Positions 14 to 32,514 are shown, counted from the stretch's first letter. The stretch: DNA of 32,514 nt from Jimgerdemannia flammicorona (GCA_003990765.1 RBNJ01000343.1:1-32514); one strand, 5' to 3'. Numbers and translations are program-made. The notes: a model not told the origin generated them from the sequence alone.

Positions 14-536
14 TCAAGCGCGGCCCGAATTCTCGGATTTTGTGGAATTCGTCGAGATCGTTGTCGACCTCGACAAACCCGCTGCGAGCGAATCGACTTC
101 GTAGTCCTGACTACCCCTTACTCCCCTCCTCCTCATCTCCTCTTCCATCGCCGCCTTTGCCGCCCCAGCGCAGACCCCACCGGGCGCGTCGGGGATTGCC
201 AGGGGTCGTCTCCCAACTATGTTGTACACGTTACAGTAGGTATCCGACGTGTCCATCTCTGCAAGCGCGTCCTCGCAAAGCTGATCGTAGTTGTCGTTCG
301 ACAGACCCATCGCCGTCGCCATCACGGGCTGGAAACTGCGCAGGTACACCGACCACATGTTTCGGGCTGCCATGCCGGTCTTGCCGCCCCAGTTGCCCAT
401 CGGAAGCGAGAAAAATAACTTTTTGGCGTTCACGAGATCGTCTTTGAAGAAATTTTCGAGGTTGGGGCCAATACGGGGATTGAAGCCGCGGGCTTTGAGG
501 GCAAATATGACTATGGAAAAGGTCGAAGTTGATGGG

Positions 537-568
<32 letters not shown>

Positions 569-1982
569 AGGCAACTTGCACGGAAGAGAATTGATGGTAA
601 AACCAAGTTTAAAAATTGAATAGTAACCCTTGTCGTTCCAGTCGGCGAGTTTTGGGCCTCGTCGCTTGAGCTCGCTGAAAAATATTAAAATGTTGACATT
701 TAAGCCTCAATTGAAACCCGACAGCACTGTTATCGTTTTACAATCACTCTTTCAAATAGTCACCCAAATCTGATACTCACAAATCGGTGTCCAACAACTC
801 TACATATCCACCCAATTTCGTCACCCTCACTAGCTCACGGCATAAATTTTGCCAATCCTTTTCCCCCACCGCTAGCGACATGTTGCGCATGAACACGAAA
901 TCAAAGGTCGCATCGGGATAAGGCAACTGCTTGTTGTCCGCTATCAAGTTGTGCGTGCGGAAACCGACATTTTGAGGGACTTCCGTGCGGGGGAAAATGG
1001 GAGCTACGTCAATACCGGTGAAGCTCGAACGGGGATACTGTTGGGCCATTTCCTATAATACAAGAATAATAAAGCCGTGTTAGATGAGATCCCGATGGAT
1101 AACGATAAAACGCCTCCATGTCGATTAATCTCCCTTACCAATATCCAAGATCCGCAGCCACATCTATTTTGGATGTTGTACACGCCATAATTGACAGAAT
1201 TAGTTGAAAGGCGCGGTCAATATATCTCAAATGGGTCGCGTGCGAATGGATCAAAGGGCAAATTCGCAAACGATATTCCTACCCAACATCCAAGACAGCT
1301 ATTCCTCGGTCAAGATGCTTTGCTATCGGCGCTTTGTAAATCCTGGAACATGGTAATTCGAATGGATAGAGTGAGTGGCAAAGCAACCAAGTCACGGATC
1401 TACGTGTCAAATTTGCAACGAGCGAATTACCCATTAAAGAGATGCTTCAAAAGCTTGTGTTCGTCTGCTTGCCGAAGGAATTCTTTGTCGTCAAGCGGGA
1501 GCATGTACTTCAATCCTGAATTATTCAAGCCATTCCCGGTGGTCAGCACATTCCGAACATTTTCAACACCAAGAAGATCATTGCTAGAAATACATTCACT
1601 TCGTCTTACCGGGCACATTAGCAAACTTTCTCCCCTCTACCAACTTGAAAGGGTTATGCAAAAAAGCGGTACCGCTCTGCGATCCTGGCTTTGATCCACT
1701 ATGCCGACTCCCCGTGTTTGAAGTTGAGGGGGATAGGTTCGTATTGTTGGTTTTCGACATTGACGCAATGTGGCTACTGGACGACGATGTGGACGACGAT
1801 GAGCTATGCGTAGCGCCTGATCCGCGTCTGAATTCGTTGTTGTGGATATCGTTGATTTTCCTCACAACAGTACGGTCGGGTGTCTTGAGTTGGTCGAGGT
1901 TGTTCAGGCGCTCGGCGAGCGACTTGGAGGGAGTGAGGCCGGGGATAGAGAATGAGTGCCCTTTAGATTTCGTCGCCTTCAT
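14..1982 (-). CDS. Class I SAM-dependent methyltransferase (fungal Methyltransf_23/25, LaeA-like family) with Ser-rich N-terminal extension; 7 exons
   Basis: Manually spliced exons 1610-1982, 1431-1515, 1283-1342, 1139-1163, 781-1052, 628-674, 14-510 (all GT-AG; the exon 6 donor GTTACT is weak) give one frame. It reads YMLPLDDKEFLRQADEHKLLKHLFNG, motif I VLDVGCGCGSW, FTGIDVAPIFP, LPYPDATFDFVFMR, ELVRVTKLGGYVEL. Confidence 0.9.
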
Positions 1983-2974
1983 TTCCCGCAGGAGTAGATA
2001 TATTGGTTGAAAGATGGCTCTAGGGGTTTGCTGAACCGGGCTGAGCTTTTGTGGATGTATTCGTCGAAGACGGAATATACGGTGTTGTGGATAAACAGGC
2101 GAGAGAGACGCAGGCGATATAGAGGGTGACCGGAGAATGAATACCGCTCGTACTTTTTGAGTGAACGAGCTATAGTAAGCTAGCGGTCGCTTGAAGTTGA
2201 CATTACCATAACGCACAGTTATCCGTAAGACGTGGTGGTATAGATGGTTATATAAAGGCCAGGGAAATACATTTATGCAATCTCGGAACCAATTTCGTAG
2301 GCCCGCATATGCGGCATACGCGGTCACAAACCCCGTTTTTCATGGACAGATGAGGCGAATTGGCACTGTACCACACAGCGTATCACATCCATCAGTCCCA
2401 TATATGGAAGGTTCGACTAACAACGATCATGGATGGGTGCTACCCAAAATAAACTCTCCACTCAGCATCGAACCACTGATGAACCGCGCCTTCCGCCTGA
2501 CGATACCCTGCAACGTCGTCATATGTTCTGTGGGACAAAATCGCCTTGAGGCAGGTCCCCCGTTGGTTTTTATTTTGGGTCTTCTTGATCGCTTTTTTTT
2601 TTTTTTTCTTTCTCTTATTGAATGGCGGCTAGTCCATCCGCCCATTTCACACGCGACGTCAGCGCACTGTCACCTAACTCGAAAGCTTCGTAGGAAACGA
2701 TCCTTTGAAGGTTTTGGATTTTGTCTTGTAATTCAAATTTGTTTTTTGTCCTCTAACGTGTCCCTTGGACCTATATTTCACACGATCAGTTGCCAGAGCG
2801 TCTTTGCAAAAACCTAGAGACCACAACATCTTTGGTAATTCCTTTATTCTGCTCTTCCACGCGCCGGGGTTTTTATTGTCTAGGAGAGACAAGTGTCCCA
2901 GGTCTACGGGAACTGGAAACAGCAAAATTGATATTCATACTTCCATACCACCGGCCGCAGTAAGCTTTGCTCGC

Positions 2975-2975
<1 letters not shown>

Positions 2976-3028
<53 letters not shown>
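2976..3028. repeat. 53-nt poly(A) homopolymer, one of many long A/T tracts in the window
   Basis: Seen directly. Other long tracts lie near 537-566, 4361-4386, 10673-10695, 14619-14654, 28989-29022 and 32484-32514. Confidence 0.95.
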
Positions 3029-3029
<1 letters not shown>

Positions 3030-4655
3030 CGCATGTCGAAATAAGTTTGGGACACAGCGGGGTAAAAACTAAAAATTATTGTTGTTTTTGTTCGTCCTCT
3101 GGTCGGAGGCGGAGGATTACAGCCATCAACGACCACGATGAGTCAACTGACTGGTGGGGTGGTATGTATGAAAAAAAGAGCACGGGCTTGCGGGCAGAAA
3201 AGCGGTCGGAGTCCCGATTGAATCGTCGTAGGTTTTGAGTTCAATTACCGTCCGTTTGGCGCCTTCTATCCTCAACCTTCCGCATAACCTTTCCCATTTC
3301 GGGCCAAGCGCGCTCCTGTCACCCGCGAAGATCAGTCGCACAACCCAGCCCTTGGGCAATCACGCTGCCGTCGGCGGACCCTGTGCTTCCTTCATGTGCT
3401 ACCCGGTGGAGCCTGGATTCATGTGTTCGTGTGGCCCCGTCTAGATCACCGTGATATGTAGAACGCTTGTTTGAAGGACTGATAGAATAGTGACAGGCGG
3501 GGAATGAAATATCATTTCAAGGTTTCCAGTAATAAGAACGGAAGAGAGGAATTGATGCAAGGGCCAACGGGGGGTCCGGCCTTTACGCGCGCGGACAATC
3601 GTCGATATCGTGAGGTATTGTCAACAGCGAGATGGTTTGATAAAACCCCGAAGGGGATGCGTACGTACGCACATCTCGCAGAGTTCACTCCCACGTCGAC
3701 TTGAATACGCATTCGTCCAACACATGCAAGTTGCTCCGAGAAGCGGTGGGCGATGGAGTTAACTCCCTTCCCTCTTTCATTGCGTCATCGTAAGCAAATG
3801 ACGACGTCGCCGCATGTGCGCCGTCAAGTCGATGCTATACAATTATGTACTTTCACAGGCCCTGCACCAGCTTACATAACCGGCCATTTCGCACATGGGC
3901 TGCTGCATCCAACGCTAACCCCATTCGAAGATCGCGAGACAAGCCAGAACCTATTATACTATCCGCTTTGGGAAATATTCGTGCGCGATGGCAGACAGTA
4001 ATGAGTTGAAAGTACTTCCACGAAGATCACGATAAAGTTCCTTGATAGATGTGACCGAAATCTTGTTTTGGGCGTTGCCCCTGAATCAATTTCATCTTTG
4101 TCGCGAACTATATTGCTCACAATATCCGTTCGCCGCGCTTCTTGCTAGGATTGATCAAATAACCCGCGGATCTCGCTTCGAATGGGAAGAAACAAATGCA
4201 CCCAACACCGTGTTCCCCGGTTGTGCGGGGTCCAAGGACATCCGCAGGAAAACATGGATCTCGCGATAAAGAGCGACCGAATGGAGTTTCAAAAGATGTA
4301 TTGATTGTAATGATGAAAGAAAATTGAGATCCCACTACCAAGGTGGACATGTTGAACAATTTTTTTTCTTTTTTTTTTTTTTTTTTGAGTCGTGCATCGA
4401 GCTCCAAAAAAGCGAAAGCGAAAGCAAACAGAAATGAAAATTATACAGCAGCCAGATAAGAGTACGACAATATAGCAGAATGGTGGGAGATGGTGAAAAG
4501 CTATTGGGACTAATTCACACCACCCAACCTCACGACTTGCGACAAAAGATGGATCTACAACCGATACATTCCATACATGGCGTAAAACAGGAGATAGACG
4601 AATAGGTACGAGTTGCCAAGTTCGCAACGCCTCTGCTCGACGGAAAACCCACTCA

Positions 4656-6538
4656 CTACCAGGATGCCTCATCGTCATTCGAAACCCTCCCGTACTCATA
4701 TTGCTCGCGCCCGACCACATACGATACACTTGCTGGGCCCCTCCCACGGCCACGGCCCCTTCTTCTCCCGCCGCGGCTACCACCGCCCCTTGCGCCTGGC
4801 TCAGCTCGATAGATACCCCAATCGCCCATCCTTACCCACCTCCCGGATGGTACGTCCCCGTTCCCATCCCATTCTTCGTACGACTCGCGCTCCCGCTGCG
4901 CGCGCTGGGTGTTCCGTTCCCTTTCCGCCCCCGCCGCCTCCGACGCCGCCATCATCTCTCCAAGCATCATCATCTCCAGCATCCGCGCCAGTTCGTCCTC
5001 CCCGGACACGGGGTCGTCAGGGTGGTCCCCCCAACTGGTGGCCCGGTACGCCGTCTCGGTAGCCATGTCGATCATGAGGTTGAGCTCTGTCTGCATATCT
5101 GGGTACCCCCAATCGTCAAGCCGCAAAAAACGACCTCCGCCACCCCATCCGCCACGGTTCACGCGCCTCCCCCCCCGCGGCCGCTCCACGGGAACCCGTA
5201 CATCGGGCGCCACGGCCTCCGCGTGGCGGAAAAAGCAGTCGTCACCAAACAGGCAGGTGCGGCGATTGCGATTCGATTGCTCAAAATATCTGCAGGGGAT
5301 GCGTGACAACGAAGCTTTGTAGCGGTCGTTCATGACTGTCTTGTCTTGCGCCGTCGCGGGGTAGATGGACGAGGGAATGATGTAGGGTGAAGGTGTGCGG
5401 CAGAGGGGACAGGTTTTGGTCGGCCCAAGGTCCGCGGTGGAAGAAGAGGTAGTGCTGGAGCCCGAGGGAGAAACGGGGCGGTGGGAATTGCGGTCGGAGT
5501 TGAATGGGGAGGCAAGAGATGAGCCCGAGGATTTATTTTTACGCCATTCACGGATGCATTCTATGGATGGGTAACAGGGTGGGAGAATTATAAATCAGAG
5601 TGGGTCTATTGGCCAAAAATGAGAGTGAGCGTAGTCTTTGGTCATAAAATAACACTTACCTAGACAGTAAACGTGATCGCACGACACTGTGAGGATCATA
5701 GAAGATAAGAGGGAAGGAGATCAGCAGTATGCTATGAAGGATATATAACAAGTGCGATCAGATGGTTCAACTCGACAACATTCATATTAAAAATAATAAT
5801 CAAATAAAAATAAAATGTGCTCAGCAAACAAGCAAACTATTCACAGAGCACGACATAGCTTTCTGATTTCAACTCACCCAGTAACCCAAACGTCGCGGGA
5901 ACCTCAAAGCATATTGCGCATTGTCTTTCCTCCACAGTCTCTTCTAGAGGTTGCTTCTCGACAAACTCTGGCTGGTTGTCGAACTCGTCGAACTCGGTTA
6001 CAATTTCAGTGACCTCCTCATTCACAACCTCAGTGACCTCATCTAAGACCACACTGCCGACGTCATTCTCAAGCTCGTGTACAGGTTGTTCGTGGACCTT
6101 CGCCGGCCCGGCAATTACTGTAGACGTGGATGTAGTGGTGGAGTTGCTACTGGCGCTCGATGAGGACACAATGGTGGTGATGGTTCTAACGCTGGTAGTG
6201 TCGGAGGCGGTGGTGTCCCTCTCCAGGTCGATAATCAGGCGCGCGTCCTCCTCAATGGGCAGCTCGTGCAGGAACCAGCACGAAGCGCCGCGATGGCAGT
6301 AACCTTGCAGGAAATACTTACAATATATTCTTTGCTGAGAGGGCGAGGCAGTGGTGGTGGTGGGGGTGGGTGTTGGGGAGGTGAGCTGGTGCGGGAAGCG
6401 GGTTGTGGTGAATGAGGAGGAGGGGGAGGGAGTGGCGCTATCCGGAGTAGGGTTCTGGTGAGAGAAGAAGCAGTTCTGGCCGTAGATACAGGTGGACTGG
6501 AGAAAGAACCTGCAAACAGGTCTGTTCGTTGCGGCCAT
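4656..6538 (-). CDS. Makorin-family CCCH zinc finger / RING (C3HC4) E3 ubiquitin ligase; 3 exons
   Basis: Exons 5878-6538, 5660-5686, 4656-5560. Two N-terminal C3H1 fingers (CRFFLQSTCIYGQNCFFSH; CKYFLQGYCHRGASCWFLH). RING split across introns: CAICFEVPATFGLLVSCDHVYCLECIREWR...CPLCR. Makorin linker YIIPSSIYP and a C-terminal C3H1 finger (CRYFEQ...CLFGDDCFFRH). Confidence 0.92.
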
Positions 6539-6692
6539 GTGGTTTATGTTGTTTCTGTTTCTCTGATGGAGTAGGGTTGAGTAGGGGCCAGGGGGGGAAG
6601 GGATAGGGGGGTGGGAGAGGGAGTGGGAATGACGGGGGGGGGAGAATCAAGAAAATGTTGACGCTTGAGACTTCTGTCACATGACACTTTGG

Positions 6693-6735
6693 CCGCCATA
6701 ATTATTCCGCCATAATTATTCCGCCTCATAATTCT
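6693..6735. repeat. Tandem 14-bp repeat CCGCCATAATTATT (2 perfect + 1 degenerate) upstream of the makorin-like gene
   Basis: Units at 6693-6706, 6707-6720 and degenerate 6721-6735, about 155 bp upstream of the ATG at 6538. Confidence 0.85.
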
Positions 6736-6871
6736 CAATTCACACAATCAAATCCGAAAGAAACAAACAAATTTGCGCGAGAAATGTGACAAATGTATTG
6801 GGCCATGATCCATAATGATATATAACTACAACGTCTATTTGGACCAAGAAACTTCGCTAACCTGATTACAT

Positions 6872-8479
6872 CTAAACTATCTTAATACCGAGCCCCAATG
6901 AATCCAACGGGCTCAGCCGGTTGATGTACATCGCCGCGCTCCCATTACCGCCGCCTATCGCGCTCCCATTACCGCCGCCGCCTATCGCGCTCATGAGCGG
7001 ACTGAGCGACGGGCTGGTGGGCACAGGCATCCCGTCCGCCCCCAGTTCTCTTGACGCCATCGTGTAATGGTGATATCCGCTATACCTGTCGTCCGTCTCA
7101 TCATCCTCGCACATCTTGTCCTCGTGATGCCTGACGTGTGACCCCAGATCGTTCAGTTCAATCTTGACGTCGTTGTGATCGCGCTGCATCTTCGTCGCCG
7201 CCGCCGCGTCCTCCTTCGCAATGTCCGCCGCCAGCGTCGTCCCGACGCCCGCACGCGTGCCCCAAGCCACCTCGTGCAGCGTAAACAGCGCGTACAGCTT
7301 CATGATTGCAAAATAGTAACCAAAAATGAGCCACGCGGGAATATGGATGATGTCTTGCGGCCGCCGCAGAAGGTGCGGAGTGAGCTTGAACGCGCGTGTG
7401 AGTAGTAGCCAGCAGATATATGAGACGAGGATGTTCCAGAGCGGCTTGGGATGCGGGTGGTTGACCTGGTGGAAGGCGTAGACGCCGACGAGAAACGGTC
7501 CGGCCAGGAGCGTGAATGGGTTGAAAAATTTGTCCAACATCGTGAACGCCACGTACGGGTGCCGAAACCAAATGTAGCGCTCCATGAACAGCGAACGGAA
7601 ATCGGAGCGCCAGGTGTTGCGCGTCCATCGCAGCACCTGTTTGATGAACCGCCAATTGTTCTTGAACGTCGAGTACAGCTCTGCCTCCGGGCACACCTGG
7701 ATGTACGTGTTCCACCCGTGCGACACCATCCAACGCGTCAGGAACTTGTCGTCGCCCGAGTTTAGCGGGTACTTGTCCCGCCACAAATCGTTCGTGAACC
7801 CGTACTGGAATGCCGGGTCCTTGAGGATCAGCGTGCGATACGCCGCTGTCCGTCCCGAAATACAGCACACTCCGCCATCAATGTGCGTCGACGCCGCTAC
7901 CTCAATGTTGCGGAAGCTCAGCCGGAACCCGGCCAGCACCTCCCACACCGTCTGGTACCCTGACGGATCGACCGCGTGCACCGTCTGGCACGTGCCGACC
8001 CCACCCATCTTGAGGTCCTCGAAGCAGGCCAGCACGTACTCCAAAAATGTCGGCTTCCAGATGGCGTCGTCGTCGGCGAAGACAATGATCTCCGTATTGC
8101 AGTTATTTATTCCCTCAGTCATTTGGAGCCGCTTGTTCGCACGCGACACCGTCAATACGCGGATCTTGTCCGGGTTCACCTCGTCCGCGAGTTGCTGCAG
8201 CGGACCGCGCATCCGCTTCTCCGTGATAATCAAAATCTCGTGCGGGTCGTTCGCCATCCAGCTACGTGCTGCGATTTTGAACTCTTCGCCAGCGTCAATT
8301 GTCGGCACGATGATTGTGACATCGTCGGGCGAATACGTGGGGTTCGCCTTGGGCAACACAGGTCGATAGAAGAACCAAGCGGTCACCTTGATGAAGAACC
8401 ATAAGTAGCGAAAGAATCCGATGATACCGAGTGGCAGGAAGAAAGGTAGAAGTTGGTCGTCGTTGGTGAGATAAAGCAT
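6872..8479 (-). CDS. Processive glycosyltransferase family 2 membrane polysaccharide synthase (Cps1/hyaluronan-synthase-like), intronless, 535 aa
   Basis: Single ORF with an N-terminal TM segment, DVTIIVPT, KR..M, DxD motif (FADDDA), CISGRTAAYR, catalytic GDDKFLT, QxxRW (QVLRWTRN), several C-terminal TM helices and a WGTR motif. Confidence 0.93.
   Translation of the reverse strand: MLYLTNDDQLLPFFLPLGIIGFFRYLWFFIKVTAWFFYRPVLPKANPTYSPDDVTIIVPTIDAGEEFKIAARSWMANDPHEILIITEKRMRGPLQQLADEVNPDKIRVLTVSRANKRLQMTEGINNCNTEIIVFADDDAIWKPTFLEYVLACFEDLKMGGVGTCQTVHAVDPSGYQTVWEVLAGFRLSFRNIEVAASTHIDGGVCCISGRTAAYRTLILKDPAFQYGFTNDLWRDKYPLNSGDDKFLTRWMVSHGWNTYIQVCPEAELYSTFKNNWRFIKQVLRWTRNTWRSDFRSLFMERYIWFRHPYVAFTMLDKFFNPFTLLAGPFLVGVYAFHQVNHPHPKPLWNILVSYICWLLLTRAFKLTPHLLRRPQDIIHIPAWLIFGYYFAIMKLYALFTLHEVAWGTRAGVGTTLAADIAKEDAAAATKMQRDHNDVKIELNDLGSHVRHHEDKMCEDDETDDRYSGYHHYTMASRELGADGMPVPTSPSLSPLMSAIGGGGNGSAIGGGNGSAAMYINRLSPLDSLGLGIKIV
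6934..6992 (-). repeat. Short in-frame tandem repeat in the GT2 C-terminal tail (SAIGGGGNG SAIGGGNG SA)
   Basis: Repeated CGCGCTCCCATTACCGCCGCC(GCC)TAT units on the + strand. Confidence 0.85.
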
Positions 8480-11400
8480 CTTGGCTGCTCGAACTAGGGG
8501 GGGCCGGCGACTAACGGTGAGAGAGAGAAGTGAGGAGTTCTAAGAACAATGAATTTTCATTAATTTTATTATTATGGCGAGTAAAAAGGTCATTGTCACG
8601 ACCGGACAGTGCATCCTTCGTGATGGGAAGCACTCGCACCACACCTAAATTTACATTCTATAGCACAAAGTTCCCGAATTAGCTACATTAAAATTCTGAG
8701 TCTAATTTCGTCACCTGCTTCGGTGGCATGTTGCATGCAACTATAACATTTTCTCCTATTTCAGGTTTCTGTGAACACGAATCCATAACTATTGTTGGCA
8801 GGGCAAATTGGCGTCCCGATTTTTGAGCAACGTGCTTTGCATGCTGCCGAAATGTAGCTGACATAAAATGATCGCATGTGGCGGAGATACGACTGTACAA
8901 AGGCACATGAATCCATGAAACAAAGATTGAAAGCTTCAACTCCATCGTCTCTTCAAATTCCTAACCGCACTTGGTGACCAGCAAACCAACTCGACATCTT
9001 GTCTTGCATAATCTGATTTAGATATGATTGGTGTGTGCTATGGCTCGAACTGTATATACCAATCTTAAAGCACAAGTCGACAATAATTTCCTCAAGCTCG
9101 AATGGAGTATGCGGAAGCGGAAGAATGTCGATATCAGAATATCGGAAACGGTGCGACCTAGTTATTTACGTGCGGCCAGACCCCCCTTTGGTTCTCGTCA
9201 ATGGAATCGGGGTGTTTTTGGGTGTCGAGTGTTAGAAAATCCACAATTTCAACGATGCTTAATGTGACCGTAGTACATAGCATGGTTCCACTTAGCTTTA
9301 AATGAGAAGCTGACATAGTACCTGACAAACTTTTTATTTTTATTTTTATCTAGATTTCACCAGTGATTATCAATATGGCAAGTGATTAAAAATTCTAGAA
9401 GAAAGGACGGAATCAGACATTCGATGACGGGATATGGTGTGGCGATTAGAAAAGATCGCACCTATACGAGTGGCGGTACGAAATTAATAAACGAAGGGAG
9501 CATTACAATAATATCGGCTGGAAAATAGCATTATTCAAGATACAAATTCACTGTTATTCGCCAGCTTGAACCTTTAATGTCATATACTCGAACGACGCAA
9601 AAATAAAAATTTTCAAAGCAAAAAAAAAAATCCTATTCTATGTATAGGACCGTTCAAATAGCACAAGACACACTTTGCCAACTTGAAGTTAGTGTCGACT
9701 TGTATCATATTCAGCCTCATAACATTGTCATACAAAATCGGTATACGGCACTGGTGAGCAATATGTAATTATCCCTTTGTCTGTATTACCCCTATATTTA
9801 GAGGCATGACTTCACTTTTGAAATCACAATAGCTTTATAAAAATATTTTACGATAATATTTTCTACCTCTGATAAAAATTTTAAAAAAAAAAAAAAAATT
9901 GTTATATTTTCAACAGAAAAACAATGTTTCAAAAAATCTTTTTTTTTTTTTTTCAAACTTTAATTTATCTGCTAAATGAATTTAAAAGACATTCTTATCT
10001 ACAGACAAAGGGATAAATACCTTTCGTTCGACTGTGGATAAAATTAGGAGCTTTCCAAAGTCGGACGTATGTACAACCGGTGAAGACAACGGAAACAAAT
10101 GTGCCTCTTCACTTAGACAAAGTGCAATAGTAAATGACGGGAAATCGGTTGGCTTAATGCGTAAACATGTCCTCTCGGGCGATTCCGCTCGCATCCAAAT
10201 GGGGCCTGTTTATGTAATTACACACAATGTCTTGTCTGCCGTATGAATTAGGTTGGCACCTTGTATTGCTAATTTTCTCATCTATATCTCTCATATATCA
10301 CTGCCGCTTCGTGCATTGGTCTACTCAAGCGTGTAAAGCTTACCGCTTATCTATGTGAATTCCGCTTATGTCTGTGCAAGGTTTGTTGAGCGATTTACAA
10401 ATATCTAATCAGTATCAATATTAGTTTGCTCGTCGAAAATGTTATCTCTCTGATGATCTGTAAAGTCTGTCCACATTCATTCAAAGGTTATCGGTGTCCA
10501 TATAAAGTATTTCTTTCGATACACGTATATCTTGCCCATTGTTTATAATTCATAAAAGGCTGTCCACTGCATACTTGATGACATACTGCAGAAATTGAGA
10601 TTGACATTAGAGGCTGCGACAACAATCTTCTGTTGAAGCAAATACTATAATGGAAAAATATGGCTAGCAGAGTTTTTTTTTTTTTTTTTTTTTTTGAGCT
10701 GTTGGTACTCCGCCTGTGAATGGATGGACCGCGTATATATATATATATACGTTGAATCTGTGTCGGTCGGACATTTTGCCTAAAAGGTTGTGACGTGTTG
10801 ATGTGGACGATTTCGGGAAGGATTGGAATTGTAATTTTCACTGTCACGCGATACAAGTTGTTCATCGAGCACCCACTTGAGACTCATAAAAAAATTAAAA
10901 AAAAAGCTTCCATTGGTATAACTAGCAAAGATGCATTTCATATAATTTATAGAAATATGTCATCTAATCACTCTGATAAGGACAACTCACGCTTGCAATA
11001 TTTAAAGCAGTATAGCGACTTGGCCTGTTGAAGGTTCACGAGGAGAATGATTTTTGTGCTTGGAAAAGTACTATTATCATAACAATCTATGAAAAATAGG
11101 GATATACTTACAGGCATCGATGAGAATAGCCAGTTTTATCCCTCCAAAATCCATCCACACGGTATCGACCAGCTCATCGAGTCGGAAGATAGGCCGTCTG
11201 CTTTTTGCCGTTATTATTGAATTCGCGTTCATGCTTCATCAATCTCGGTACTGAATTACGAGTATCGTGCAAAATAATCCACCCAAATGTTTTTTTTTTT
11301 TTTATACTGTAGCATATTATACGGATATGCTTTGGTGCAGGCGGTAACAAAATATTCTTGTCGTATTCACCGAAATGTTTGACCTGACCCGCAACCCAGG

Positions 11401-12162
11401 GCCCAGGGTGATGTCACGTGTGATATTAACCCCACACAAAAAGCCACCCAATTCTCTTCTCCTTGCCGATCGGAAAAACGAGAAAAAAAAAATTCTATGG
11501 TAAATACACAATTTTTGTTTTTATTTATTTATTTATTTCATATTTTGTTATAGCGTCTCCTAAAACGTTTCTCTTACGCATAGATTACTGGACGCGAGCA
11601 AGCTCGAAGTGGGCTCAAAACTCTACGATTAAAAAGCACAATCATTACTAGAATCGGTGCAGGTCAGTCTTTCTCTTGTAATGCGATTCGCGAGCGCGAG
11701 GTATGCGCGGATGACAGAACTTATTTTTCGATAGTTCATGCATGTGGCATGTAAGAAGGAGCTTCACCACGTGTGGTTGATATTTTCCGCTTACGAAGGG
11801 TCACGAGGAATTGGTGCGCGAGAAGATTCCTACGGGTGTTTTAGGAATTTGGAGAGGTGTTTACGATTTGCGCTGTGATGTAGTCACAGGAAGCAACTTA
11901 ACAAGTATACTAACTTTTTAATATCATCTTAAATTTAGGAGAAAGTTCCGGCCGGATTCCGACTCCCCGACCATGGGACAAGCAAGAGGCACTGCAACAT
12001 AGTCGGTAGGGACGGAGACGTCGAGGAGGTCCAAAACGAAAGGGCTGTAAGGCCAATGGGAACAAAGTGCGTGAAATTCCTAATGGCCATTAGAGGTATA
12101 TATATACTAGAAATGGGCGATTTCTGGTTTGTTTTAAGATCATCTAATTATTAACCTGATCG

Positions 12163-14509
12163 TCCTCTCAAGCCCTATGTATATACATAACAATCTGGAG
12201 ACCTACTGAAATGACCTGGAGACACTCTGATGCAACAGGAGAAGTGATTTTATTGATAATCTATATAATATAAATTTATATATTCTGATCACTCTGATTA
12301 GTGACATCTCTTATTGATGATGTAATATATATTCTCATGTATATCAAGCTGTATCTCAATAATACTTTTAGAGATTGGTCACTATCTTGTAATTTGCTGA
12401 TATTATTCTACTATCTCTGTTGTCTATTTAGTAAGATAGTTGGGTCTATCTTCTATTATTATAGTATGTTGATCACAATTTGGAGTTGACTCTTCTATGA
12501 TATTACTGAGATAAGTAAGCTTATAGACTAGTAGTCTTGATAGAATAACTATTAGATCTGCTGTAATTTTTGGGTAGGCTTAATATTCTTAGTGGTAGTT
12601 CTATAATAGTACTGAGACCACTAATGTCAGGTTCAGATATCTCTTTAATTATTCTCTTAGGTCTAAATTATGTGACAGAGACCTTGCTAAGTCTAGCAGC
12701 TTATAGTTCTTATTATTGAATTATTCTCACTTATATATAGAGAATTCAATAATAGAAGTGAGATTTCTTTTAATAGTATTATATCTCTTATAGTTTAGAA
12801 AGATCTTAGCTTTATAGTAGCAATTATTAGAGAAGAGATTCAGAAAATTTTTACTTATAATCTCAATAGATTCTTATATATATTTTTCATAAAAGTATCT
12901 GCTAACTAGTTTGTTAAATTTCTCCTTAAGTTCAGTAATATAGAAAACTTCTTTGTTGAGTACAAAAAGATATTGAATATTTTTTTAAATAGTTTTATTG
13001 TTGAGTTTGTCAAACTTCTCTTAACTAGTATGAGTTTTAGTCTACTTAGTGCTAATTCTGTTAAATTCTTCAACTTGAGTCTGGGGAGTGTCTAAGGTAA
13101 AGATACTTCTTAACTACTACTAACAATGTTAGCAATATTGACTAGTTCTGATTATCTATAGTAGATTTTTGAAAAAAAATTGCTCATAGATAGAGAGTAA
13201 CTTCTGCTACTACTAAATTATAATAAAACTATATACTAATAAAATTAATATATTATAAATAATTAATAATGATTATCAAATCTAAGTTTTGAGTTCTTAA
13301 GAAAATACTAAGTTCTAATTATCTATTGTAGCAGAGTCTAGATATCACTTTTAGGTTCTTATATTAATAAAAGTACCATACTTGTGTTCTAAGTTAATCT
13401 GACTCAAAATTATTAACAAATTAGATCTGAGAGTTCTATAATAAGAATACTACTTTATTCTTATATTTAGAGAAAGTGAAGCTGAGGTTACAACATACTC
13501 AGTATAGAGAGTATTTATATATATATATATTTGAGACTATAACTAAATATAGTTTGCTAGATATATCTATATGTATTTATACTATTTTGGGTAGCTATGA
13601 CTGCTAGTTAAAATTTCTGTTAAAATTTTTATCAGAATTTTCAGTAGTTTATAGATATATAATAATTCATTATACTATAAGTCTATATATCAATACTAAT
13701 ATATTGATATATATAATCAATAGTATATTGATTTTATTTATATATCTACTAAGTAGTAAATCTACTACTTAGTCTATCTCTTCTATAAAAAGATAAGTAC
13801 TTATTAACTTTATAGTATCCAGACTATTATTAGCTACTAGACTTTAGCTATTAATGATATCTGCTTCTCTAAACTCTCTATGATCTCTTATCTTATTTAA
13901 AGAGTAGACAAATGTATATCTTCTCCCCTTTACCTAAGAATAAGATTTAATAGTAAGATATCTCTACTTTTATTCAATAATTAGACTCTTTGGACTTCTT
14001 TAATTTTATTAAACAGTGGGTTCTATAAGATAAGAAGATATATATTCTTCTTATACTCTATATATCATAATATATAGTAAACAACTTTATCTGCTATCAA
14101 GTAGTTGTTGGCTTCTGAAGTAACTAATATATATAACTGATTTGCTAAGATAATTCTTACCTTGGATATAACTAAAGAATATATGCTAGACACCTTGTTT
14201 AATACTTTATATATCATCCTGGCTCTTTCAAAAGATAAGAACATATGCTCTATATACTGAATTTTCTACTAAATATATAAAATGAAACTCCTCTACCTAC
14301 TGATTGACAGTAACTATACAGTGACTTCCAAAACTGGTCCAATGTTTCATTATTTTTTACTTTTTATTATTTTAAAAATATAAAAAAAAAATAGATAAAA
14401 ATATGAAACTAGAGTATATTGTAGCCCTATATCAGAAGTTTCTATAGATACTAATTTTATTATATTTATTATTGAGATTGCTATTGAAAATAATTTTTAA
14501 AAAAGTCTG
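12163..14509. other. AT-rich, CpG-free, TpA-rich hypermutated block (RIP-like relic of a repeat or transposon)
   Basis: I found no CG dinucleotide between 12161-12162 and 14510-14511. TA and CT/AG are abundant and CA/TG relatively scarce by eye, while the flanks have normal CpG content. Confidence 0.85.
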
Positions 14510-14617
14510 CGTATTGGACCAGTTTTGGAACGACCATCTCGATAAACATATTTTTGTGTCACAGACCAGAAATTTTGCATGATTATTCTCTTAACCCCTC
14601 TCCACACGCTCATATTT

Positions 14618-14655
<38 letters not shown>

Positions 14656-15010
14656 TCTATCTCTTTTTTTATTTTTAAAAAAAAGAATGAGAAAATTCTC
14701 GTTGGACACTCAAAAAAACGGCATCGCTCTGCTAAACTCGGGCATAGCGACGCGTCAAATCGCCGAACAGACTGGTGTTCGTATTAAAAAGGAGCATTGC
14801 TCTACTATGTCACCGAAAGGAGGTCGTCCAAAAATACTCTCGGATCGTGACAAATCATGGATTGTTCGCCAGGTGACTGGCGGTAAAGCTGATACAGTCC
14901 CCGAGGTTGCAAAACTACTCCAAGAAGACGGCCAAGCAAAAGCCAGTACCCAAACGGTGCGTCGTGCCCTGCAAGACGTCAAAAATCAACTCAAACCACA
15001 GACATTCTAA
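14319..15010 (+). mobile_element. Truncated Tc1/mariner (Tc1-like) DNA transposon: left terminus plus N-terminal transposase fragment
   Basis: TA at 14317-14318 is followed by CAGTG..., a typical Tc1 terminus. The 18-bp core TTCCAAAACTGGTCCAAT (14326-14343) recurs inverted at 14513-14530. A transposase DNA-binding region follows. No DDE domain or right terminus was found. Confidence 0.8.
14687..15010 (+). pseudogene. Tc1-type transposase N-terminal paired HTH domains (fragment)
   Basis: MRKFSLDTQKNGIALLNSGIATRQIAEQTGV..., the linker GGRPKILSDRDKSWIVRQV and a second HTH TVPEVAKLLQEDGQAKASTQTVRRAL. The ORF stops before the catalytic domain, and the first HTH recognition helix appears partly deleted. 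Confidence 0.85.
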
Positions 15011-16325: not shown

Positions 16326-16399
16326 GAAGACTAATGAAGACCCCAACACGAAGACCCCAACCCAGAGGACTAACGAAGACCCCCACCCAGCGCACGAAG
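16326..16399. repeat. Degenerate short tandem repeat built on GAAGACCCCAAC / GACTAAYGAAGAC
   Basis: gaagactaatgaagaccccaacacgaagaccccaacccagaggactaacgaagacccccacccag seen directly. Confidence 0.7.
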
Positions 16400-22634: not shown

Positions 22635-24760
22635 ATGCCTCCAAAGGCCTGGTTCAAACTCGTGAACCCAGAAAGCGACTGGAACAAAGTTTCGTTAAGC
22701 GAAGCCAGAGATGTGACTGACCTCAAGAGACAAATCAAAACTGAGTCATTCCCCATCCTTGACAAATACAGTGCTACCCAACTTATTCTCAAGGCTACAA
22801 GGAAAGGCAATGATGTTAGTCAAGCAGTAGATTTTGGTGCACAACAAGACCTTGCTTCCATCCTCAAAGTACTTCAATGTGGAAGGTCTACTTGAAGATA
22901 TTGTGGTGGTAATGAATCTCTTCGCCGAAAATGTCTGGCTCTTTGTGAGTGCTCATGGTAAATAGTCCAAGTCTACAATTTTTTTTTTTTTTTTTTCCAC
23001 TTCCTTTCATTTTTGACCTTTTTCTTGCTCCTCTCAAAGATCCTTTAAAAACAAAGTGTGAGCAAGCAGAAAGTGGTTCCAAGAATTCAAACAAGGTTTA
23101 AAAGATTCTTGCTGCCAAGAGAATTTCAGAAACGAGTATATTTAAGTCAATCGCAGAGGTTGGCGCGATAGAGCAACACAATCAGGTGGGTATTTCGATA
23201 GTGTGACTCAGGCGTCATCCAATTTTTATTTTGCTCTAACTTTATTTTCCAACATTCGCAAAAGCTGCAACTCCCAAGAAACTTTCCGAGTTTTCATGCC
23301 TTCCGTGTTAGCCCAGGAATGCTATTAGCTGACAAGACAATATACATTGAGTACCTCGAGGAATACAACAACCAATTCAGATACACGTTCCTCCGGCCGC
23401 GTTTCTTGGAAAGTCGGCTTTTCTTGACATGCTCTGTACATACTACGACATTCATACACGATCTATTCGGTCCGCTCTACATTGGCAAACACCCTACTCC
23501 CTGGCACAACAAGCACATGGTCATGAAGTTTGATCTGTCATTCATCGATGTCAGCTCCTGGGACATGATGAATATGGGCTTTAATGACTATATCAACAGT
23601 GTGATAGAGAATTTCGTTGTCAAATACCAACGAGAGCTAGGGTTTCCAGAAATTGGTAACGTGATCAACACACAAAATGCCACTTCTTCTCTGAATAAAA
23701 TTATAGTGAGTTTCCATTTCTCTCATCTTTTGTTGGATAAACACTTGAAATGTGTTACTTAACCTGCTGTTATATATTCAGGCATTGGTTGGCTCGCGTA
23801 ACCACACCCTTTTCGTCGGAGTGGACGAATACGAACAACAGCATGTTCATAGACACAGCGATAGGGTTGGGCGAGGTTACATTCAAGAAAGTTACCGAGG
23901 TTGACCAATTCTTCAAATCGAATTTTTTTGCTGTGCTCAAGATGGGGTGCGAAGGTCAAGGTGCTCATAGCATAATCATCAGCAAGTATTTTCTTACAGG
24001 TGTTATCCCTGCATTTCGCACTGGAATCAGTCCGCTTCATGCAACCGATATGATCTCTGGTCATCGTCGTTTACACGGCATATGCAGATTCGACTGCCTA
24101 TGCTCTGAGTTTGTTGTACAATGGATATTATTTTGCCAACTCCGAGTACGACGAATCAACTCTTTTATACAATCCCCACCAAGTCTTCCACTTCATCTCC
24201 AACTCCCAGGCAAATGGAGTCGTCAGCAAACCTCCAGCTAATTCCAGCATATCCTCAAAGCTATCCCTGACATTGGGGAGTTTTCCGCAGCCGATCTTGT
24301 CGACTTGATGATACACAGATCCATTGAATCGACAGTCAAGGATGGATTTGGCTACGCCGATCTTCTCGGGGTCGGGAAAGACAAGGACATAACTTGCTCT
24401 CTCCTTCTCCATTTGGGAGTCTTGACTCGTAGTACAACCGGAAATCTGCGGATCGCGAACGAAACCGCAAAAACAGAGGTATGTCTTTTTCTTACGCAGT
24501 CCATTTCCTATCAACGCAAACAGAACACCAATAATAATAGTAATGATAATATCGACTTTTTCAGGTCTTAGAACGAACTTCCAGTTATCTGCAGAGTGAT
24601 GCTTTCCCAGCTCCACTGATAAAACCTCCTGGAGACATTATTTATGGAAAGGACGGTGATGTCTGATGGGATATGTCATTACGTTGATCGGAGGCAAAGG
24701 AATCCTGATGCACACTAAGGAAATAATGCCAACCTCAAGCAGTGTTTCAGTTTTGAAGGA
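22635..24760 (+). pseudogene. Crinkler (CRN)-type N-terminal ubiquitin-like domain + AAA-ATPase-like domain; nuclease domain largely deleted (copy B)
   Basis: MPPKAWFKLV...DVTDLKRQIKTESFPILDKYSATQLIL... with an FAENVWLFV end motif after a frameshift (CRN header-like). Then LQLPRNFPSFHAFR..MLLADKTIYIEYL, a Walker A of RPRRFGKS type (RPR..GKSAFLDMLCTYYDIH) broken by a frameshift near 23405, LFVGVDEY, YFLTGVIPAF, YNGYYF, LYNPHQV, GNLRIANE. Intron 24479-24564, then a short jump to LMGYVITLIGGKGILMH. Confidence 0.8.
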
Positions 24761-29027: not shown

Positions 29028-29109
29028 TCATTGGATCGGCCGTTAATAAGAGACCACACACCGCCAAGCCACAGGACGATAATTCCGTGACCCATGCGTC
29101 CCCTTCACC

Positions 29110-30349
29110 ATGGTCCAAAGTTTCAACTTCTCCGGCCTCATCAATGCGTTTCGTGTCATCACCAAACCGAGCCTCGTCGTGCCGCATCTCGTCGTTCCTG
29201 GTAACTCTCGCTATTCCCCTCTGCTGATGCGTTGTAAACGGCCTCATCAACCCACGTTAACATATCTCTGCACATCGGCCCCCCAACTCTATGGCAAAGA
29301 CGTCCGCCACATCAACTTCCGCCAACTCAAGTCTTCTGGATTCCGTGCCCTGGCATTCGACAAGGATAATTGCTTGACAGCGCCATATCAGAGCATAATA
29401 TATCCTCCGTTTCAGGTGTGGGCCTGTATTCGATTCTTCGGTTCGGTTCGTGTCAGTCTACGCCCCCATACACGATTCTCACTTGGGAATTCTTTAGGAC
29501 GCGTGGAACGAGTGCAAGGAGGCCTTTGGCGAGGAGAATGTTGTGATTGTGTCAAATTCAGCAGGCACGCATGATGATGTGGGCGGGAAGCAGGTGAGGT
29601 TTCGGACAAGGGATGGTCGTTGTCGTTTGTGATGGCACAGGCTTTTCAGGAATGGTGCTGTTGGATCTTTAATGAGTGTCTCGTTATATAGGCCGATAGT
29701 CTTGAGAAATCTTTGGGTAAGTACTCTTTCGCTGTGAAAGTCATCGCCGCATGTAGCTGCAAGGTGTTCCTGACCAGTCGTGCTTACAACAGGTGTCTCG
29801 GTGCTAAGACACACAGAAAAGGTACACCACACTCTCTTCAAATCAGAAGTCTATCACTACTTCAATGCATCTCCAGTCCCGGCTGACGCATCCTCATACT
29901 TCCCCGAACCTAGAAACCTTCCGGCGGCGCCGCCCTCCTCGTCCACTTCCACACTCACTCCCCCGACACCCTCGTCGTGATCGGTGACCGCTTGTTCACG
30001 GACATAGTCTTTGGGAACACCATTGGAGCATTCACCGTACTGACCAGAAAGGTCGTGTCCGAGAAAAAGGATAATCCTGTGGCCATAGTGGTAGGTTGAG
30101 AATGTAGTCGTTGGGACGAGGGTCGAGTGAGGATGGTTCTATGGATTCTGTGGAGAGCATACTGGCCTAAAACTGTGTGTATTCATCACCACCGAATACC
30201 TTCCACGTCCGCCTCATTTTTCCGAACCTTCATAGATTCGCCGCTGGGAGCATCAGCTTCTAGATTGTCTCACACGGCATAAGATCCCAGCCTCGCCGCA
30301 TTCATCCGATAGCTGGCTCGACAAACGAGTGCTGGTCAAGGATACGTGA
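29110..30349 (+). CDS. GEP4: Mitochondrial phosphatidylglycerophosphatase (HAD subfamily IIIA, Gep4/YqeG-like); 7 exons
   Basis: Exons 29110-29200, 29300-29415, 29498-29593, 29692-29716, 29793-29821, 29914-30090, 30236-30349. Motifs FDKDNCLTAPY, IVSNSAGT, VLRHTEKKP, VIGDRLFTDIVFGN. Confidence 0.92.
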
Positions 30350-31980: not shown

Positions 31981-32479
31981 AAGAAACAACTGGTTGTATT
32001 GGAAACTAAAGCAATCAAGTACAGTCGGTATCATTACTTGTTACCTCAACTGAGATATGAGTATGTAATGTCGCCTTCGACGAGAACTCTCTGGAATTTT
32101 GTAGAAGGCGATGGGGAGAAACTGCTGCCAAATACTGAAGTGTGACCCCTGCGATGTTATAATATCCCAAAGTTACTTTTTATTTTTTATTTTCATTTTT
32201 AAAAATTATAATGCCAGAATAACGTTCAAAGAAACCTACAAAGAGTTACCAAAGAACATTAAACTAACATCTATTATCATAATTATTATATTTTTTATTT
32301 TATAATACACTAGTATTATAAATAAATATAATTTACAAATTTACGTATCATGATAAGCCTATTTATTAGACTTATGATTTCCGCGTGCAAACCCCACGTC
32401 ATCAACCCGAGCTGGAGAATGGACTACCAAACAAACAATGGTGCTGACACTGGCTTGGCCTCTGAGTTTTCGCATCATA

Positions 32480-32514
<35 letters not shown>

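Follow-up and report, generated by a model that had tools for sequence, protein, structure and literature searches.

A sharply bounded, CpG-free and TpA-rich island resembling the product of repeat-induced point mutation in a contig of the fungus Jimgerdemannia flammicorona

A gap-free contig of 32,514 bases from Jimgerdemannia flammicorona (GCA_003990765.1 RBNJ01000343.1:1-32514), referred to hereafter as the window, contains a single segment of about 2.35 kb that has no CpG, is rich in TpA and retains CpT and ApG. Its composition satisfies published indices for repeat-induced point mutation (RIP), yet the contexts in which cytosines were lost do not match the CpA-dominated RIP of Pezizomycotina. 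On balance, we favor the view that this island records a methyltransferase-linked hypermutation confined to the relic of a silenced element, with an outcome like that of RIP but by a process other than canonical RIP. The evidence is the composition of one locus. The island and its parts are as follows.

12163..14509, no strand assigned: CpG-free, TpA-rich, CT/AG-retaining island, defined by composition (GC 25.2%)
12239..14507, no strand assigned: island core, defined by a Markov log-likelihood scan
12163..12238, no strand assigned: left margin without CG, GC roughly 40%, in which about 3 CG would be expected (estimate)

The CG-free gap at 12161-14510 (2349 bases) is the longest in the window, which holds 1647 CG dinucleotides and no N; the next longest gap is 223 bases. 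Base composition predicts 37.2 CG within the island and none was found (Poisson P(0) = 7e-17), while in 5000 shuffles of the island the count averaged 37.3 and was 19 at the lowest. The island described from the sequence in the initial annotation is thus confirmed. The GC content of the island is 25.2%, compared to 47.3% in the left flank and 45.1% in the right flank. The Markov scan returned one standout segment (12239-14507, 423 nats), and the best segments elsewhere scored only 10 and 21. Both edges are sharp, with the transition completed within approximately 100-150 bases. The left margin may be an edge zone in which only the fastest target, CpG, was mutated. On the right, the true edge may lie at 14317 instead of 14509, as a neighboring Tc1/mariner relic with a naturally AT-rich end could account for the last 190 bases; only about 2 CG would be expected in these 190 bases, as estimated from their length and GC content.

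Low GC content does not account for the pattern. Nine AT-rich control windows from elsewhere in the contig (500 bases each, GC at or below 35%, outside the island) all retained CpG, with observed/expected ratios of 0.91-1.36 and TpA/ApT of 0.82-1.02, which argues that AT-richness alone does not explain the island. Within the island the observed/expected ratios were low for CpG (0.00), CpA (0.61), CpC (0.62), GpG (0.76) and TpG (0.93) and high for TpA (1.20), CpT (1.78) and ApG (1.53), while in the flanks they were 0.94-1.15 for CpG and 0.72-0.74 for TpA. TpA/ApT was 1.21 in the island and 0.70 in the flanks, and (CpA+TpG)/(ApC+GpT) was 0.84 in the island and 1.14-1.22 in the flanks. Both values pass the thresholds for RIP given by Hane and Oliver (at least 0.89 and at most 1.03, respectively; PMC2621366). 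The initial annotation had proposed that such indices be computed in sliding windows; the composite RIP index was positive only in the 1-kb windows starting at 12001-14001 (maximum +0.70) and ranged from -0.19 to -1.04 in all others.

The surviving cytosines show which contexts were spared. Counting both strands (n = 590), the 3' neighbor is T for 367 cytosines, A for 172, C for 51 and G for none. The strands are balanced, with 296 C and 295 G in the island, and both bases are depleted in every one of the twelve 200-base bins (17-36 C and 19-35 G per bin). A mild GC skew changes sign along the island, G exceeding C on the left and C exceeding G on the right. The island has no satellite character: it contains no more than short local arrays and compresses like ordinary sequence.

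Two genes were used as markers of the host.

6872..8479, minus strand: GT2 polysaccharide synthase, 535 aa, in the left flank, 81% identical to a protein of Endogone sp.
29083..29571, plus strand: exon of a GEP4-type PGP phosphatase, in the right flank, identified by protein matches

The GT2 protein is related to those of Endogone sp. (81% identity), J. flammicorona (77%), Bifiguratus (77%) and Umbelopsis (76%), and its identity to Dikarya proteins is no higher than 67% among the matches listed. The two best matches of the GEP4 exon are J. flammicorona proteins, followed by the protein P0123 (57%) and an Endogone sp. protein (45%). Judged by these matches, the island is flanked on both sides by DNA of Endogonales (Mucoromycotina). 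A host in Mucoromycota, which had been suspected at the outset, was thus borne out, and the competing proposal of a Pezizomycotina host was contradicted; ordinary Pezizomycotina RIP is not applicable since both flanks are from Endogonales.

We simulated C-to-T mutation on both strands of pieces drawn at random from the contig, with rates set by the 3' neighbor, and stopped each run when GC reached 25.2%. The best models reproduced all 10 strand-symmetric dinucleotide counts (chi-square 6-9). Relative to CpA, the fitted rate was at least 3-5 times for CpG, 0.75-1.5 times for CpC and at most 0.02-0.1 times for CpT, with a best value of 0; conversion thus reached every CpG and roughly half of CpA and CpC and left CpT essentially intact. 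In contrast, the chi-square was 276 for uniform C-to-T change and 230 and 259 for two Neurospora-like sets of rates, which leave 34-53 CpG where the island has none. For the 32 trinucleotide classes the best model gave r = 0.98, compared to 0.83 for the uniform model, 0.86 for the Neurospora-like model and 0.88 for base composition only, and the trinucleotide chi-square was 72 for the best model and 1216 for the Neurospora-like model. Of the models able to reach the GC target, those in which CpC was not a target fitted much worse (124-3136) than those in which it was (3.6-45). The result held across four progenitor pools, with the following best fits:

right half of the contig (18000-32514): starting GC 47%, best chi-square 3.6
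GT2 and zinc-finger genes (4600-8500): starting GC 54%, best chi-square 4.8
non-coding flanks: starting GC 41%, best chi-square 45
AT-rich intergenic DNA: starting GC 36%, best chi-square 103

For the two best-fitting pools, the implied number of transitions within the 2347 bases is approximately 507 and 670. Two sets of residuals remained: CAT and CCT were below prediction (z about -3), while CAG/CTG was above it (96 vs 74, standard deviation 9). These point to some influence of wider sequence context.

By composition, then, both CpG and CpA look to have been mutated, in agreement with what had first been proposed for this DNA, and CpC appears to have been mutated about as strongly as CpA while CpT was spared almost completely. 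CpA did not emerge from the fit as the dominant target. Because CpC was mutated and CpT spared, the signature is unlike the CpA-dominated RIP of Pezizomycotina. The initial annotation had likened the island to RIP, in which CpA becomes TpA; this holds for the TpA- and CT-rich texture and for the indices but fails for the targets. The complete sparing of CpT is the oddest feature of the island and matches no enzyme preference that we found.

Searches for coding or RNA content in the island were negative. With X at stop codons, no Pfam family was matched in five of the six frames, and the sixth gave one match at chance level (E 0.18). No Rfam family was found at E of 1 or below, no tRNA was detected, and the longest open frame is 85 aa even when TGA is read as tryptophan. 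No copy of the island was found inside the window, either by blastn or by blastn with the sequence collapsed to purines and pyrimidines, which did no better than with shuffled sequences. A transition-tolerant alignment of the island to the Tc1 transposase P0223 gave no signal (42.5-54.5, compared to 42-52 for shuffled sequences). A purine/pyrimidine period-3 test for former coding sequence was powerless here, since even the GT2 gene reaches no more than 0.4-4.9 per window. No comparable island was found among 36 metagenome loci that encode GT2 relatives (219,812 bases), a small sample from unknown fungi, in which the longest CG-free gaps are 426 and 388 bases with a GC content of about 40% and an excess of CA and TG. 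Two stretches of these loci have the look of classical 5-methylcytosine (5mC) deamination at CpG, in contrast to the island: L012:5088-5684 contains 1 CG where 23 are expected (GC about 40%, (CpA+TpG)/(ApC+GpT) 1.38), and L017:375-761 contains none where 16.5 are expected (GC about 40%, index 1.18).

Several known systems resemble the island in part. One is the RIP described by Hane and Oliver (2008) for the MATE elements of Aspergillus nidulans, in which CpG is converted to TpG and CpA is then converted to TpA (PMC2621366). As in the island, CpG and CpA are both targets, CpG is the first of them, TpA is gained, the product is AT-rich and both strands are affected. Unlike the MATE elements, the island belongs to a host outside Dikarya, CpC was mutated as hard as CpA, and CpT was spared. 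RIP in Neurospora crassa likewise leaves tracts with sharp bounds and a high density of C:G to T:A changes that pass the index thresholds, but it is RID- and DIM-2-dependent and CpA-dominated, and Neurospora-like rates fit the island badly. The hosts also differ. Badet and Croll (2025; Table S3, PMC12543289) credit J. flammicorona with 37,472 sequences between 100 bases and 1 kb long and 274 between 1 and 5 kb long at 95-100% identity, and N. crassa with 0 and 0 in these categories; for J. flammicorona, Table S2 of that paper puts repeats at approximately 169 of 231 Mb. By these published tables the J. flammicorona genome is not largely free of long near-identical repeats, and its retention of tens of thousands of them argues against an efficient general RIP.

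Signatures outside RID offer another comparison. In Amselem et al. (2015), signatures at CpA and CpT are tied to RID, those at CpG to a Masc2-type Dnmt1 (PMC4352252). The CpG-biased signatures listed there for transposons of Microbotryum and rusts and for Tuber melanosporum, which has CpG plus CpA signatures, are attributed to methylation of the Masc2/Dnmt1 type followed by deamination (PMC4352252). The island shares the CpG bias with these; unlike the CpG-only or (T)CpG signatures of basidiomycetes, it has a GC content down to 25% and is depleted in CpA, TpG and CpC. Phycomyces blakesleeanus, from the same subphylum as the island host, is described by Lax et al. (2024) as carrying 5mC in repeats only, in CG and CHH contexts, over whole elements and stopping at element ends, and as encoding DIM2 and DNMT1 (PMC11258239). 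The passages of that work that bear on this concern methylation and not mutation. A literature search returned no paper on 5mC in Jimgerdemannia.

We propose the following course of events for the island. The starting point would have been nuclear DNA of Endogonales with ordinary composition (approximately 47-54% GC), probably a dead mobile element. About 500-670 C:G pairs, roughly half of those present, would then have been converted to T:A on both strands at rates set by the 3' neighbor, so that every CpG and about half of CpA and CpC were lost and CpT was spared. The most likely cause would be a process linked to a cytosine methyltransferase and limited to one silenced segment, acting either through deamination that followed dense 5mC in both CG and non-CG contexts or through direct enzyme-driven deamination. 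Such a process would be neither RID-type CpA-dominated RIP nor a defense that sweeps all repeats of the genome. We prefer a methyltransferase as the agent because the 3' neighbor governs with CpG first, because methylation in CG and non-CG contexts confined to repeats is present in the same subphylum, and because the host plainly lives with very large numbers of near-identical repeats. According to a review, DIM-2 activity favors C-to-T change where repeats are methylated (PMC13297926). In addition, the survival of CHG slightly above the simple model (96 vs 74, standard deviation 9) lies in the same direction as the methylation contexts of Phycomyces.

A number of observations weigh against this interpretation. 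A table in the same review gives DIM-2 a preference for CpT (PMC13297926), the opposite of the sparing seen in the island. The Tc1/mariner relic that abuts the island shows no loss of CpG, nor does the rest of the contig, and since the relic keeps its CpG, methylation-driven decay is not the general fate of element relics here. Each of the 173 CpA/TpG sites in the island is one transition away from CpG and none is now CpG, which bounds reversion to CpG at less than about 2% by our estimate; it follows that the event was recent or that purging is ongoing. If slow decay were the sole process, a more blurred composition would be expected. The model presumes a progenitor like the contig and tests composition only, and the authors of RIPCAL caution that composition indices are unreliable when used without alignments (PMC2621366).

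A true RIP-like system, triggered by homology, linked to the sexual cycle, independent of the RID of Pezizomycotina and preferring CpG, CpA and CpC, is possible but in our judgment distinctly less probable. Both index thresholds are passed (1.21 and 0.84), the edges are sharp, both strands are mutated, and the loss of about half of the cytosines with no CpG regained would fit fast bursts. A sexual stage is available, as Endogonales form sporocarps that bear zygospores (PMC5729711). The abundance of near-identical repeats (37,472 and 274 sequences, and about 169 of 231 Mb in repeats) is what an efficient RIP would prevent, however, and the abutting transposon relic was left untouched. What is described of RID places it only in Pezizomycotina (Muszewska 2017, PMC5751038), and RIP signatures are reported as undetected in Mucoromycotina (PMC8647823, citing Venice 2020). 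Badet and Croll report RIP-like k-mer signatures only in Ascomycota and, in Table S14, label J. flammicorona 'no_rip' with counts of 23/0/0 (k-mers enriched in non-coding sequence, in repeats and in both), but 23 is the highest count among the Mucoromycota rows examined (0-23; PMC12543289). The label does not exclude RIP-like tracts, since Leptosphaeria maculans bears it as well (45/0/0) although 90% of the C-to-T sites in its transposable elements are at CpA (PMC4352252). We regard as tentative the proposal that Endogonales have a repeat-directed C-to-T system of their own that works without RID, with the rule that every C not followed by T is a target and CpG is the first. The idea of a genome defense that acts on repeats in general, with which the initial annotation began, is opposed by the fate of other repeats: near-identical copies abound and the adjacent relic keeps its CpGs. 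Ordinary deamination of methylated CpG in an element or spacer that was AT-rich from the start is improbable. The loss of CpG is total, CpG methylation of elements is described as common in fungi (PMC8647823), and two stretches with CpG-only loss (L012 and L017) occur in related metagenome contigs. Such decay would raise TpG and CpA, yet the index is 0.84 in the island, compared to 1.14-1.22 in the flanks and 1.18-1.38 in L012 and L017; neither CpA (0.61) nor TpG (0.93) shows a matching gain, and contexts other than CpG are affected. AT-rich progenitors gave the worst fit (chi-square 103 vs 3.6-4.8), the AT-rich DNA of this contig has a TpA/ApT of 0.82-1.02 where island windows have 1.2-1.37, and by our estimate the loss of CpG alone is unable to bring GC from about 45% to 25%. 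The depletion of CA and TG where enrichment would be expected, together with a GC content of 25%, upholds the view held from the start that simple CpG deamination is unsuitable.

The remaining explanations are less probable still. The island texture resembles RIP-mutated DNA, so a piece of an ascomycete genome might have been joined into the contig, and Endogonales genomes were presumably assembled from field-collected sporocarps, in which case other fungi could be present. We consider this very unlikely: it needs two chimeric joins within one gap-free contig with Endogonales DNA on both flanks, the loss of all CpG and the mutation of CpC with sparing of CpT are unlike CpA-dominated RIP, and the island is best reproduced from the composition of this same contig. 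We give equally little credence to damage by an APOBEC-like deaminase acting on single strands, whether a retroelement copy was edited before it integrated or a mutation cluster arose at a repaired break. The sharp bounds of the tract and the change in sign of the GC skew, as would be expected around a resected break, are in its favor, but single-strand editing would strip one strand, while both are heavily mutated in every 200-base bin. The changes are not coordinated by strand, and it is the 3' neighbor that governs; a rule based only on the 5' neighbor cannot erase CpG and yet leave 33 GpC. Our literature search on APOBEC-like enzymes in fungi yielded nothing relevant. Finally, an organellar or endobacterial insertion, which had been raised at the outset as an alternative and would suit the low GC content, has almost no credibility left. 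The lack of any Pfam domain, rRNA or other Rfam family, tRNA or long frame (85 aa at most with TGA as tryptophan) effectively excludes it, and it does not account for 0 CpG where 37 are expected.

If real, the island would be a mutational scar of RIP-like type that follows a context rule of its own, in a lineage that has no recorded case; nothing on RIP in Jimgerdemannia appears in PMC7928374. The survey of Badet and Croll would mostly have missed islands of this kind, since its k-mer counts cover only scaffolds longer than 50 kb and the mean sequence length of the J. flammicorona assembly is 6.5 kb (Table S1, PMC12543289). Should there be many such islands, they would bear on when mutational genome defense arose in fungi and on why a 231-Mb genome filled with repeats still expanded. 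A system proper to Endogonales, if true, would mean that RIP-like defense is older than Dikarya or was invented more than once. If the island stands alone, it is a curiosity.

The DNA immediately to the right of the island contains the following features.

14319..14343, plus strand: candidate terminal repeat of Tc1 type that follows a TA (TA, then CAGTG...), containing an 18-base core
14513..14530, minus strand: the 18-base core in inverted orientation, immediately outside the island and flanked by CG on either side
14620..14654, plus strand: 35 consecutive T separating the island from the transposase relic
14687..15007, plus strand: truncated N-terminus of a Tc1/mariner transposase, 107 aa, with HTH_32, identified by domain search and relatives

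Relatives of the transposase fragment carry HTH_Tnp_Tc3_2 and DDE_3. No DDE domain was found downstream of the fragment and no second terminal repeat was found within the window, so the neighboring element is a truncated relic. An exhaustive search returned 115 relatives of the fragment, 3 of them with E of 1e-10 or below and all at 57% identity or less; a search among longer proteins gave no scoring relative. The fragment is not depleted in CpG (6-10 CG per 100 bases). The TA-preceded repeat at 14319, which we take to be a Tc1 end from its likeness to Tc1 termini, would, if real, place the right edge of the mutated DNA near 14317 and mean that the relic was inserted beside or into the island. 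No match to this repeat was found in the metagenome scan. The two copies of the 18-base core form an exact inverted repeat that straddles the right edge, approximately 170 bases apart, and their similarity ends at the core. A long inverted repeat at this edge was considered and rejected, as only the 18-base core is real and the remainder is AT-rich noise. The pair could mark the two termini of a short non-autonomous element resembling Tc1, or be sub-repeats within one long terminal repeat.

Other features of the window lie farther to the right. At 16334-16397 a 25-base C-rich unit occurs in three imperfect direct copies, within an open frame that has a high content of Pro, Thr and Arg. [quoted passage not shown] The right flank also has open frames at 23202-24568 in which a Predicted AAA-ATPase domain (PF09820) is encoded. 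A second long run of T (32483-32514) ends the contig and follows an AT-rich segment at approximately 32160-32350 that still contains CG.

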